From: Octopus vulgaris
Lineage: Eukaryota
Direction of reading: 5' to 3'
Assembly (NCBI GenBank): GCA_951406725.2
Contig: OX597831.1
Coordinates: forward strand, 51,150,001-51,214,000
Length of the DNA: 64,000 nt
Position numbers and translations under genes: made by a program. The notes beneath the pieces were generated by a model. That model worked only from the letters and a program-made list of their open reading frames with translations, was not told the origin of the DNA and made no database searches. Each line of letters starts with the position of its first letter. Position 1 is the first letter of the stretch. Of the stretch, positions 8,020 through 50,262 are shown one piece after another.

Positions 8020-8720
8020 GATGATGATAATGATGATCATGGTGATTACTATTATTTATTATTTATAAAAATATTACAATATTTTCTTCTGTTCTAAAAT
8101 TCTTTATGATCGCTGTCAGTTTACATCATCACCATCATCACCTTCATCACCAACATTAACACCATCATCATCCTCATCATCACAATCATCTTTATCACCA
8201 TCATCACTAGCAGCAGCATCTCCATCATCATTACTATCATCAACATTACTGTTCTCATCATCACAATCATCTTCATCAACATGGTTATCATCACCATAAT
8301 CATCATCACCTTTGGTACCACTTCAGTCACCAATACCATTAATATTAGCACAATGATCACTGCTACCATTAAAATCACCATTATATTACCAATAATAATA
8401 ATAATAATAATAATTATTATTATTATTATTATTATTATTAACAATAATAATAATGGTGATGATGATGATGATGGTGATGATGAAGATAATAATAATCACT
8501 GCCATTATCATCATCAGCTTCACCATCACCAACATATTTATCATTATCACCACCTTCATCACCATTATAATCACTAGCAGCAGCGGCACTATTACCATCA
8601 GTACCGTCATCAGCATCACAATCTCTGTTATCATCACCTTCACCACCACCACCACCACCACCACCAGATGTACCTCCCACCCTATCATCTCCATCAGCAT
8701 AGTCACCATCATTGCCACGA
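8020..8720. repeat. Degenerate (CAT/CAC/AAT)n low-complexity tract
   Basis: Trinucleotide composition; source of the poly-I/M/H ORFs. Confidence 0.9.
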
Positions 8721-25627: not shown

Positions 25628-25951
25628 ACTATTATTATTATTATTATTATTATTATTGTTATTATTATTATTGTTGTTGTTGTTGTTGTTATTATTATTA
25701 TTATTATTATTGTTATCATTATTATCATTATTATTATTATTATTGTTATCATTATTATCATTATTATTATTATTGTTATTATTATTGTTATTATTATTAT
25801 TATTATCATTATTGTTATATTATTATTGTTATTATTGTTATTATTATTGTTGTTGTTATTATTATTATTATTATTATCATTATTGCTATTATTTTTATTG
25901 TTATTATTATTATTGTTATTATTATTATTATCATTATTGTTATTATTATTA

Positions 25952-25983
<32 letters not shown>

Positions 25984-26089
25984 GTTATTATCATTATTGT
26001 TATTATTTTTATTGTTATTATTATTGTTATTATTATTATTATTGTTATTGTTATTATTGTTATTATTATTATTATTATCATCATTATTA

Positions 26090-26121
<32 letters not shown>

Positions 26122-26129
26122 TTTATTTA

Positions 26130-26167
<38 letters not shown>

Positions 26168-26175
26168 CATTATTA
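25628..26175. repeat. (ATT/GTT)n microsatellite, ~550 bp
   Basis: Direct. Confidence 0.98.
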
Positions 26176-30462: not shown

Positions 30463-30508
<46 letters not shown>

Positions 30509-42126: not shown

Positions 42127-42296
42127 TCAGAATCTTAGGGTTAGTAGCCCATGCTCTTAACCATTTCGCCATATGCCCACGGGCAGGTTCAAAATTTCCC
42201 CAAGACACCTGATGAAGGCTGTAGGGTATATCAGCCGAAACGTTGTGTTAACAACAAACAAGATGAAGACAAATATCAGTCAAATATAAATAATGT
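42127..42296 (+). mobile_element. Truncated copy of the tRNA-head/hammerhead element (part of the antisense tRNA head plus one HHR arm)
   Basis: Aligns by eye with 42648-42817. Confidence 0.85.
42204..42249 (+). ncRNA. Minimal type I hammerhead ribozyme (PLE/retrozyme type)
   Basis: GACAC-CUGAUGA-A-GGCUG(10 nt)CAGCC-GAAAC-GUU-GUGUU; palindromic AACGUU stem III. Confidence 0.75.
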
Positions 42297-42503
42297 TGTT
42301 TGTATGGGTGATGGCTAAAAGTAGACTAACCTTCACATTGTTAACTATCAGATTTCCCAGCATCAAGGATGCTCTGGTCTTGAATATACACCCCAATTTT
42401 AACTTTAATTGAAAAGAAGATAAAACATAAAAACAGCAACATCTAGATCCTTATTTACATTATTTACATTCGACGGATATTTGTCCTCATCTTGTTTGTT
42501 GTT

Positions 42504-42546
42504 AACACATTTCGGCTGGTATACCCTCCAGCCTTCATCAGGTGAC
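42504..42546 (-). ncRNA. Hammerhead motif in the left arm (3 nt deleted at the cleavage triplet)
   Basis: GUCAC-CUGAUGA-A-GGCUGG(8 nt)CCAGCC-GAAAU-GUGUU. Confidence 0.65.
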
Positions 42547-42626
42547 TTGGGGAAATTTCAAGCCTGGGTTGTCATTCCTAAGGTATTTGTCGATATTATT
42601 ATTATTATTATTATTATAATTATTCA

Positions 42627-42698
42627 AGTCACAGCCTGGAATCAGACTCAGAATCTTAGGGTTAATAGCCCGCGCTCTTAACCACTACGCCATATGCC
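42627..42698 (-). promoter_or_regulatory. tRNA-derived internal Pol III promoter/head
   Basis: GGCATATGGCGTAGTGGTTAAGAGCG (A box, D arm), GGG-CTATTAA-CCC anticodon arm, decayed B box GTCTGATTCC. Confidence 0.75.
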
Positions 42699-42724
42699 TA
42701 CAAGCAGGTTCAAAATTTCCCCAA

Positions 42725-42770
42725 GTCACCTGATGAAGGCTAGAGGGTATATCATCTGAAATGTTGTGTT
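42725..42770 (+). ncRNA. Hammerhead motif in the right arm (stem II decayed)
   Basis: GUCAC-CUGAUGA-A-GGCUAG..UCAUCU-GAAAU-GUU-GUGUU. Confidence 0.6.
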
Positions 42771-43175
42771 AACAACAAACAAGCTGAAGTGAAATACCCA
42801 TCGAATGTAAGTAATGTACATAATTCCTCATCTCTTAAATATAGAACTGTATTATCTAGATCCTTGTTGATCACTTATCATCTGTATTCTTTTCTTTTAC
42901 TATTACACTACAGAGACATGGCAAGTTTAATAAAGATAACCTTCTGCTGGGGTCAAAATTAGTTTATGAAAAATGTAACTTTTGTCTTCTAGGATGCGTA
43001 GTATATTTTAGATATATTTTAGAAAATATATGGCATAATCAACACCCAGGAACATGAAAGTAACACGTATTATACAATGACATATATGTTGACTTTTTAC
43101 TTGGCATATAACCCCTAAAGCTCTCCCTATATGTGTTAAACAAAGGTGGACTGTATACTTAACATCTGTCAACCA

Positions 43176-43293
43176 TATCATAGCCATATAATATTGAAAA
43201 CACCAGTACTTGCCCTATCACTGAACTTAAGCAATGTTGAGCCCAGTTAGTACTTAGTTGGGTGACCGCTTAGGAAACTTAGATGCATTAAAC
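43176..43293 (+). pseudogene. 5S rRNA pseudogene
   Basis: GCCATA..TTGAAAACACCAGT..ATCACTGAACTTAAGCAA..GAGCCCAGTTAGTACTT..TGGGTGACCGC follows invertebrate 5S with CpG decay. Confidence 0.85.
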
Positions 43294-48452: not shown

Positions 48453-50220
48453 TTAACAGGTAATGACAATGATGATGATAACAACAATGTATATTTGATG
48501 AGCTTCCTGATAGTTTCCATCTGTTAATTTCACTCACAAAGCATTGTTCAGACTGAGGCTAAAGGGTTACAGTAGAAGAGATTTGCCCAAGACACCTCAC
48601 AGTCGAACCAAACCTGATTTCACACAGATGTGAAGCAAACGTCCGAACCATACAGACATGACTCTGTTTATATATTCATATATATTTAAATAGTTAATTA
48701 ATTAATTAACTCTTCTGTTTTATGGTAAAATCATCTAAAAGTGAGACTTCTGTGCCATACTACAAAGATAACTTTGACAGTGCAAGATGTCAGTGACCAC
48801 AAGCTAGCAAAGTTAGAGATAAACAAGTGACAAATCAAAAAAAAAAAAACCGTGGGATGAAAGAAAATTCTAGGTTGTAGATTGAGACAATATTGATCAG
48901 CAAAACAAAGATCAATGCAAGTTCATTGATATATTTATATAAATATATATCATATTAATTTTATATTAGAAATACAAAAATATTACAATAAATAATTTCA
49001 AAATGAATAATAATTTTTATCTTTGGCACAATGCCAAGTCACAATACCGTTGATGAAATTGATCTCAAGCATTTAATGAGAGAGAACCCTTAAGTAGTCG
49101 CTTTATTTGCTAGAAATATCAACCAAATCTTTCTCAAGTCTCACTCTATCATCCTAAAAAAAGAAGCACACATTGGATAATTTATCCCTGAATGCATTTA
49201 CCTGTCACTGAAAAGCTAATATGGCCAGGAAGCTCTGTACTATGCTTATGCTAATTCTTTTTAAGAGCTTGCGTAGCTGTTGTGAGCAGACCTCGAGACC
49301 TTCTCAGTCCTCCCACACTTGACCCAGTGGAACATCAAGGATGTGAGAGCTGGTGGGAGAAAACACTACACCAGCACTAGGCTAATACAACAGCATTCTA
49401 CAGAGAGCTGATGGGGTATGTACCATAAAAATTCTTGAAACATCTTCAATAAAAGCCATCTGAAAAGTTGTAGGAGTCGTCAAGAGTTCATGGAGGTCAT
49501 AGGAAGTTGATGAGATAATTGAGGAGTTTGTATTTATTGGAGTATTGTGTTTAGTGGAGTATTTTGAAGTATGTCATGTGAAGACAGTTGCGTTTATGTT
49601 CGCTTCTTGAAATCTGTATATCCAACGTATAGAAGGATATTAAAAAAAGGTTGCACTATGAAGACATATGACTATCAACTAGCAGATGAAACTAACTATC
49701 ACTGAGTAAAACTATTATATGGGGGATAAGGGTGATGCAGATCTGACTTCAAAATCATCATCATCATCAGACTGAGCAAATTTGACACAATGATGATGAT
49801 AGTGACAGCCAATAGACAAACAAATTCAAAATATATTTTAAATTTAATATATATATATATTTTTATATTTTCTAAGACCTTTCCTTTTTCAATTTCTATT
49901 ACTAAAAATTTCTGGTAATTGGCTTACTATATTTATTCTGTGATGTCATAATTAAGAAGAAAAAAAATTAAATACACACACTCACACACATACAAATTAA
50001 ATTAAAATATATGTATTTCTAAAACAAAATTTGAAAATCAAAACAAAGCAAAACAAAACAAAAAAAAACAAATAGATTAATTTACTTGCTTAAGTAAACA
50101 GTAAGGAAAAATGATTTAATTAAAAAATGAACTTAAAACATTTAACAACAAAATTCCATACTTTATTTTGTTATAAACTATCTATAGCAGAAGGTAATTA
50201 CAATAACAACAACAACAATG

Positions 50221-50262
<42 letters not shown>

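Follow-up and report, generated by a model that had tools for sequence, protein, structure and literature searches.

The closest described relatives of the element analysed here are the EN+ Penelope-like elements (PLEs) of the Penelope/Poseidon type. They encode an RT along with a GIY-YIG domain at the C-terminus in a single ORF, possess pLTRs and form partial tandems, and their insertions typically carry an inverted, 5'-truncated copy (PMC8557442). A tail of 30-40 bp is found on one end only, and the pLTR contains a minimal hammerhead (PMC8557442; PMC4209133). In Schistosoma, for instance, pairs of minimal hammerheads on opposite strands lie 100-700 bp apart, and a short palindromic helix III is described as the dimer-dependent form of this ribozyme (PMC4209133).

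Other systems share individual features with these elements. The SINE-like elements Sm-alpha and Sj-alpha of Schistosoma, described as non-autonomous tandem repeats, have a promoter of the Pol III type with a hammerhead after it (PMC6765202). Likewise, animal non-LTR retrozymes are short, ORF-less, pLTR-related and hammerhead-bearing, and by definition consist of tandemly repeated units that each contain a hammerhead (bioRxiv 10.64898/2026.07.22.740005; PMC7229834); the main text of the 2026 retrozyme preprint contains neither the word 'tRNA' nor the word 'promoter' (bioRxiv 10.64898/2026.07.22.740005). The TRIMp3 elements (Cassandra, Helenus and Ajax) have a small-RNA-derived Pol III promoter inside their terminal repeat, proposed to come from insertion of a SINE into that repeat, but they are non-autonomous LTR elements with direct LTRs, PBS/PPT and 4-5 bp target-site duplications (TSDs), and their autonomous partners are expected to use Pol II (PMC10886601). 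Lastly, tRNA-derived SINEs join a tRNA-derived head to a 3' part that comes from the mobilising element. Ohshima and Okada reportedly described such SINEs (OK, OR1 and OR2) from octopus in 1994.

In the following, we describe an element from a 64,000-nucleotide stretch of the Octopus vulgaris genome (assembly GCA_951406725.2, contig OX597831.1, positions 51,150,001 to 51,214,000, forward strand), which we call the window. The initial annotation had read it as a SINE/retrozyme hybrid that borrows the machinery of Penelope elements. This link stands as far as the PLE machinery, the minimal hammerhead family and the PLE-sized TSDs are concerned, but the unit is not a stand-alone SINE or retrozyme: its head, (AAT)n stretch, arm and tail are almost certainly the pLTR of an autonomous PLE with RT and GIY-YIG domains in the same genome. 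What sets it apart from the EN+ PLEs is that this pLTR opens with a tRNA-derived head, absent after the ORF in 20 related PLEs, that about three quarters of the head copies stop there, and that the coding strand is free of T4 runs. In contrast to Sm-alpha and Sj-alpha, the unit belongs to a PLE that codes for a protein, its ribozyme is of the minimal PLE type and its copies are mostly inverted rather than tandem; unlike animal retrozymes, they are mostly inverted or single, and one tandem array was seen. The differences from TRIMp3 are the inverted ends, the 11-15 bp TSDs and the position of the head in the repeat of the autonomous element itself, whereas the differences from tRNA-derived SINEs are the partner, a PLE and not a LINE, and the lack of a separate master lineage. 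In sum, the tRNA-headed pLTR would work like a SINE, but it forms no lineage of its own and, as a rule, no tandem repeats of the retrozyme kind.

The copy in the window

The copy in the window is a truncated, doubled-back end, about 400 bases long, of a Penelope-type element (Table 1). Its outline agrees with the initial annotation: the 12-bp TSD, the inverted arms (83-86% complementary), the (AAT)n spacer and the 30-bp tail are all present, and the minus strand has no T4 run before the flank, the first run of at least four T lying at 42433, inside it. The two outward-facing hammerheads were recognized correctly insofar as CUGAUGA occurs on both strands, but neither arm is intact. The left one lacks 3 nt just after GAAA, by which the palindromic helix III is lost, and the right one has three changes in stem II and an altered base directly after GAAA. 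Both hammerhead cores and the B box have decayed. The view that the arms are non-coding has to be given up, since the N-terminus of a PLE protein, interrupted by a single stop, can be read from the right arm plus the tail.

Table 1. Features of the copy at 42441..42865 and of its neighbour, in window coordinates
Feature	Position	Strand	Remarks
Left TSD, 12 bp	42441..42452	+	Same letters as 42854-42865; family TSDs 11-15 bp
pLTR arm without tail; hammerhead CUGAUGA 42541-42535, GAAA 42513-42510	42451..42566	-	3-nt loss after GAAA; likely inactive
pLTR segment 'M'	42567..42592	-	Family majority has an ATG in frame with the PLE ORF; putative start codon
(AAT)n microsatellite of the pLTR	42595..42624	-	Length differs among copies
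tRNA-derived head	42625..42699	-	A box 42692-42682; B box ~42649-42638, mutated here; tRNA +1 at 42699
Decayed fold-back centre, 5-bp stem, 2-nt loop	42695..42706	.	At head 5' end; microhomology joint to second arm
Inverted, 5'-truncated second pLTR arm; hammerhead 42730-42736, GAAA 42758-42761	42705..42823	+	Stem II damaged; likely inactive
30-bp PLE 'tail'	42824..42853	+	In full-length copies continues directly into ORF body
Right TSD	42854..42865	+	Same letters as 42441-42452
Partial copy nearby, with the head in reverse, the same junction and an arm	42127..42296	+	Hammerhead of the minimal type, intact; CUGAUGA 42209-42215, cleavage predicted after 42244

The intact hammerhead motif of the window (42184-42296) belongs to the neighbouring copy, 150 bp to the left. 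The two copies have a common junction, which occurs four times in the genome, twice inside this window, and the neighbour is likely an old local duplicate or a piece of one complex insertion.

Relationship to an autonomous Penelope-like element

One of the copies selected by their head (L053) has the end of a reading frame just upstream of the head. A search with this ORF end yielded 30 loci, 28 of which run on into the head according to BLAST, while the remaining two have kept the spacer and the arm/M part with the head deleted. From the ORF stop onwards, the unit leads through a 30-nt spacer, the head, (AAT)n, M, the hammerhead arm and the tail to the ORF body; likewise, in loci selected by the ORF start, head, M, arm and tail lead into the ORF. 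The pLTR therefore follows the ORF stop and also precedes the ORF start, partial tandems are present (L240, L245, L251 and L260), and both insertion ends are 3' ends of the pLTR unit. A full-length copy (L121) shows the same inverted layout with a 12-bp TSD and a 2.3-kb ORF inside. Given that the pLTR is linked to the ORF and that arm and tail read as the N-terminus of its product, the unit is the pLTR of the autonomous PLE, whose coding frame begins with a stretch that includes the hammerhead.

The column majority of the ORF copies is a single open frame of 782 aa. RVT_1 matches were obtained in the family ORF with E-values of 5.8e-8 and 1.2e-9, and 138 relatives, mostly of 510-870 aa, have RVT_1 together with PF26215. 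The C-terminus aligns to the Pfam GIY-YIG stretch of the relative P0118 (E 2e-9) and scored 0.97 against ESM Atlas clusters that hold 18-27% GIY-YIG members; the family's own copies gave no direct Pfam GIY-YIG match, and a PDB sequence search with the family protein returned nothing useful. On every feature tested, the family belongs to the EN+ PLEs. No Zn-finger-like linker was seen in the ORF translation, which points to a probable placement with Penelope/Poseidon over Neptune/Nematis.

The arm of the neighbouring copy, when translated, is identical in 12 of 22 positions to the N-terminus of P0008, a relative of 847 aa. Residues 18-39 of this distant PLE protein correspond to the hammerhead region, read in frame. 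The overlap of ribozyme and coding sequence thus exists in more than one lineage.

While tblastn of the collected loci detected no second PLE family, a search of the genome with a distant PLE relative found one. This PLE-like family (L330, L331 and L333-L348) is young and headless, with open frames of 750-1,200 aa without stops and a linker with a cysteine motif. An apparent cluster of 3' ends at ORF position ~394 turned out to be a deletion private to the reference copy and was set aside.

Hammerhead ribozyme

To compare the ribozyme with those of related PLEs, we searched the sequence downstream of the ORF in 80 loci from metagenome contigs for the motif, and found the same hammerhead core in ten. 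Nine related loci (L350, L359, L383, L384, L401, L357, L352, L409 and L428) were aligned with three window copies; L374, whose motif is identical to that of L359, and the atypical L353 were left out. Helices I and II covary in this alignment, with 86% of cells paired and two-sided changes in nine of ten pairs, and the covariation score was reached by none of 500 shuffles and by no slide. Helix III is a 4-nt palindrome. Covariation across related PLEs thereby supports a predicted minimal type I hammerhead in the pLTR. Among 319 arm fragments, the density of breaks is roughly three times as high immediately 3' of the predicted cut (22 breaks within 15 nt, versus 20 in the preceding 45 nt), in a window picked after viewing the data and with internal deletions included in the counts.

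Rfam reported neither the hammerhead nor the tRNA head, the single-strand folding z-scores of the arms are unremarkable (-0.2 to -1.2), and minimum-energy folds of monomer and dimer did not give the hammerhead topology.

The tRNA-derived head and the fixed 5' end

The tRNA-like head that the initial annotation had placed on the minus strand is supported by its A and B boxes and by its alignment to host tRNA-Arg/Ala, which scores above all 200 shuffles (z 7.4-7.6; 30 host tRNA loci), but its cloverleaf is poor, the B box of the window copy is mutated, and neither ARAGORN nor Rfam recognizes the head, which has diverged too far for them. Against the same tRNAs, all three own-family controls were clearly above shuffles, as opposed to the 20 related PLE loci with a long stretch of downstream sequence, none of which was. 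A relaxed ARAGORN search of related PLE loci gave only noise. The pattern of A and B box was absent from all 80 relatives, many of which have little downstream sequence; this is a weak negative, because the pattern recovers just 15 of 30 own-family controls, and the alignment of the 20 loci is the stronger one. A pLTR beginning with a putative tRNA-derived A/B-box head, absent from 20 related PLEs, is new.

The 5' ends were studied in the first 100 exact head matches on one contig (C1) among 1,745, a sample in which two pairs are duplicates of one insertion. Only 23 of these copies are linked to an ORF, a fraction that rests on this 100-copy sample, whereas 77 stop between -7 and +2 of the tRNA +1; none of the 100 ends between -8 and -17. 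Judging from the rate of truncation inside the ORF, where 19 events were counted over 8,901 nt, 2% would be expected to stop at the head. The tRNA-like head is a likely explanation for the shortness of most copies. The fixed 5' end marks a start or stop site, whichever polymerase is responsible. It lies 13 nt before the A box, at the position where Pol III would be expected to initiate.

T4 runs and RNA reads

The coding strand of the column majority contains no T4 run, as opposed to 2.6-4.0 expected (P 0.014-0.044 by shuffling), and no G4 run either. In the family copies, the ratio of observed to expected T4 is 0.20, compared to 1.44 in the 80 related PLEs, in which depletion of G4 is common, but that of T4 is not. 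The headless second PLE family has 5-7 T4 runs in its shorter open frames (750-1,050 aa). One of 55 testable relatives, on a metagenome contig (L350:3001-5270), is T4-free over 1.9 kb of coding strand; as it has no tRNA-like head, it is a counter-example to the T4 argument. On its own, the absence of T4 from the family is modest evidence.

Three raw RNA runs and one contig set, from a related sample chosen by species label, were compared to one copy (L296). Read depth is equal on both strands, 68-71% of the reads continue into unlike flanks, and no start peak is seen at the head or at the cut site. This is a pattern of passive read-through, mostly of host transcripts.

Proposed transcription and insertion

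The excess of 5' ends at the head, together with the T4-free coding strand, makes it likely that the pLTR contains a promoter of the Pol III type. Judging from these sequence features, such a promoter probably yields short, SINE-like RNAs that would be mobilised by the enzymes of the element itself. In this process, Pol III would start some 6-7 nt before the tRNA +1 and, meeting no T4, would transcribe through arm and tail into the flank. The RT/GIY-YIG protein would then nick the two target strands 11-15 bp apart, and two cDNAs would be primed, one at the arm end and one at the tail end. A cDNA that reaches the 5' end of its RNA could fold back on the 5-bp hairpin, and microhomology would connect it to the other cDNA, truncated to a variable extent; the result would be the outward-facing arrangement of arm, head and arm. 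In L319, a copy reaching deep into the ORF is joined to a partner that begins at the first base of the head, as would be expected if a single insertion drew on two different templates. In accordance with what has been proposed for other PLEs, dimers of the hammerhead would be active on transcripts that are full-length or tandem, and its presence on both strands of short copies would be a by-product of inversion.

A more far-reaching version, which we put forward tentatively, is that a tRNA-derived promoter was captured into the pLTR and drives the whole Penelope unit of ~2.7 kb, from whose coding strand the T4 terminators would have been purged. The element would then serve both as its own LINE-like engine and as the origin of its short, SINE-like copies.

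The most serious alternative, which we nevertheless consider unlikely, shares the PLE origin, but takes the head for the passive remnant of a captured SINE, the fixed 5' end being set either by Pol II initiating within the pLTR or by an RT that stalls and folds back at the 5-bp hairpin on long transcripts. It is in line with the internal, TATA-less, LINE-like promoter described for Drosophila Penelope (PMC2377424), with Kojima's argument that the processivity of Pol III limits such elements (PMC10886601), with the RNA reads, which contain no Pol III-type RNA, and with the exact fold-back centres seen at the head in 217 places. Copies lacking the fold-back, however, likewise begin at -6, the palindromes of the arms are passed, and none of eight mini-hairpins in the ORF that resemble that of the head is a comparable hot spot, the 84 ORF-linked 5' ends being spread out. 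The depletion of T4 relative to related PLEs and the coincidence of the 5' end with the expected Pol III start also speak against a passive head.

It is improbable that RNase P produces the short templates by cutting the tRNA-like fold of long PLE transcripts at +1. The sequence upstream of the head in the PLE is matched no further than +1/+2 by 33 of the 100 copies, as such a cut would predict; yet many copies have templated bases up to -6, the loop included, the junctions at +1 are often microhomologous to the partner arm, and the cloverleaf is poor.

Variable layout of the copies

The initial annotation had assumed a fixed layout. This assumption fails, as junctions, tail side and presence of an arm all vary. 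An arm is found on both sides of the head in 43 of the 100 head-selected copies, and the tail of these inverted copies is on one side in 34, on both in two and on neither in seven. The sequence beyond the 5' end of the head is not constant among copies (238 contexts). Of 75 tested copies, 25 have a TSD of 11-15 bp, compared to one of 225 mismatched control pairs, and 24 of these 25 copies are inverted. No inverted arm was detected in 21 copies; for the majority of these, the search for a TSD was negative, so that their boundaries are uncertain. Inverted arm, one-sided tail and a TSD of 11-15 bp are textbook products of PLE insertion.

We also compared the short pLTRs to those linked to an ORF. 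They are similarly divergent, and no diagnostic sites distinguish them, the majority base being the same at every site outside the selection motif; there is thus no sign of a separate non-autonomous master lineage. An independent, non-coding SINE/retrozyme family with a fixed double-ribozyme master of arm, tRNA and arm, as favoured originally, is therefore very hard to reconcile with the data, even though arm, head and arm recur in the 43 inverted copies and 21 near-full-length elements are among the 40 candidates scored: besides the absence of subfamily-diagnostic sites, junctions vary widely, with that of the window copy being as rare as noted above, the side of the tail changes, and the same sequence serves as pLTR and ORF start of an autonomous element. 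A MITE or another DNA transposon with long terminal inverted repeats, suggested by inverted ends within a TSD, can be dismissed, as the TSDs vary between 11 and 15 bp instead of having a constant short length, the inverted ends are unequal and not fixed, and the copies are 5'-truncated and linked to an RT/GIY-YIG ORF.

A variation of a different kind is seen in L022:499-1845 (C30:17290928-17294190), where six headless tandem units of ~190 bp, each comprising (AAT)n, M, arm and tail, lie beside a head-bearing copy. This array is retrozyme-like and derived from the tRNA-headed pLTR. In eight further loci (L037, L070, L087, L151, L169, L173, L206 and L225), other repeats are nested inside the (AAT)n stretch of the pLTR and separate head from arm; they comprise a putative RT-encoding, LINE-like family and a short repeat.

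Copy number and age

The 2.8-Gb genome (227 contigs) contains 1,992 exact intact hammerhead motifs and 1,745 exact 24-nt head motifs, numbers well beyond chance, with none for the reversed-pattern control of either. When the element itself served as the query, 5,948 first-look candidates came up, 40 of which were scored. Since the exact head motif is retained in just 5 of 44 ORF-end loci and an intact hammerhead in 5 of 100 main arms, the family probably has of the order of 10^4 copies in total, as a rough estimate. The divergence from the column majority, 6.0% for ORF copies and 6-13% for pLTR copies, indicates an old burst.

Implications and neighbouring features

By way of a tRNA-headed pLTR, SINEs and Penelope elements are connected, and a direct path to a SINE or to a retrozyme like Sm-alpha suggests itself, because a captured Pol III head would turn every downstream pLTR into a short transcription unit. 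Owing to the fixed 5' end, the insertion mechanism of PLEs, with its inverted repeats and one-sided tail, may become legible in the genomic junctions, of which there are thousands. Transcription of the full ORF by Pol III, if it takes place, would contradict the published view that autonomous retroelements depend on Pol II, and would raise the question of how an uncapped RNA is translated. In the literature searched, we found neither a tRNA-headed pLTR nor a pairing of SINE and Penelope; Repbase, Dfam, supplements and subscription papers, which lie beyond that scope, may hold the family, and repeat libraries may split it into a 'SINE' and a 'Penelope'. The word 'hammerhead' does not appear in the text of the octopus repeat paper, a statement that excludes its supplements and library (PMC13282606).

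Two further kinds of repeats occur in the window. Long microsatellite arrays of the (AAT)n type are located at 1288-1337, 8380-8440, 25630-26175, 30465-30506 and 50214-50262. On the plus strand, positions 43176-43293 hold a diverged 5S rRNA-like copy (Rfam RF00001, 55.6 bits), which is probably a pseudogene or a 5S-derived SINE head.
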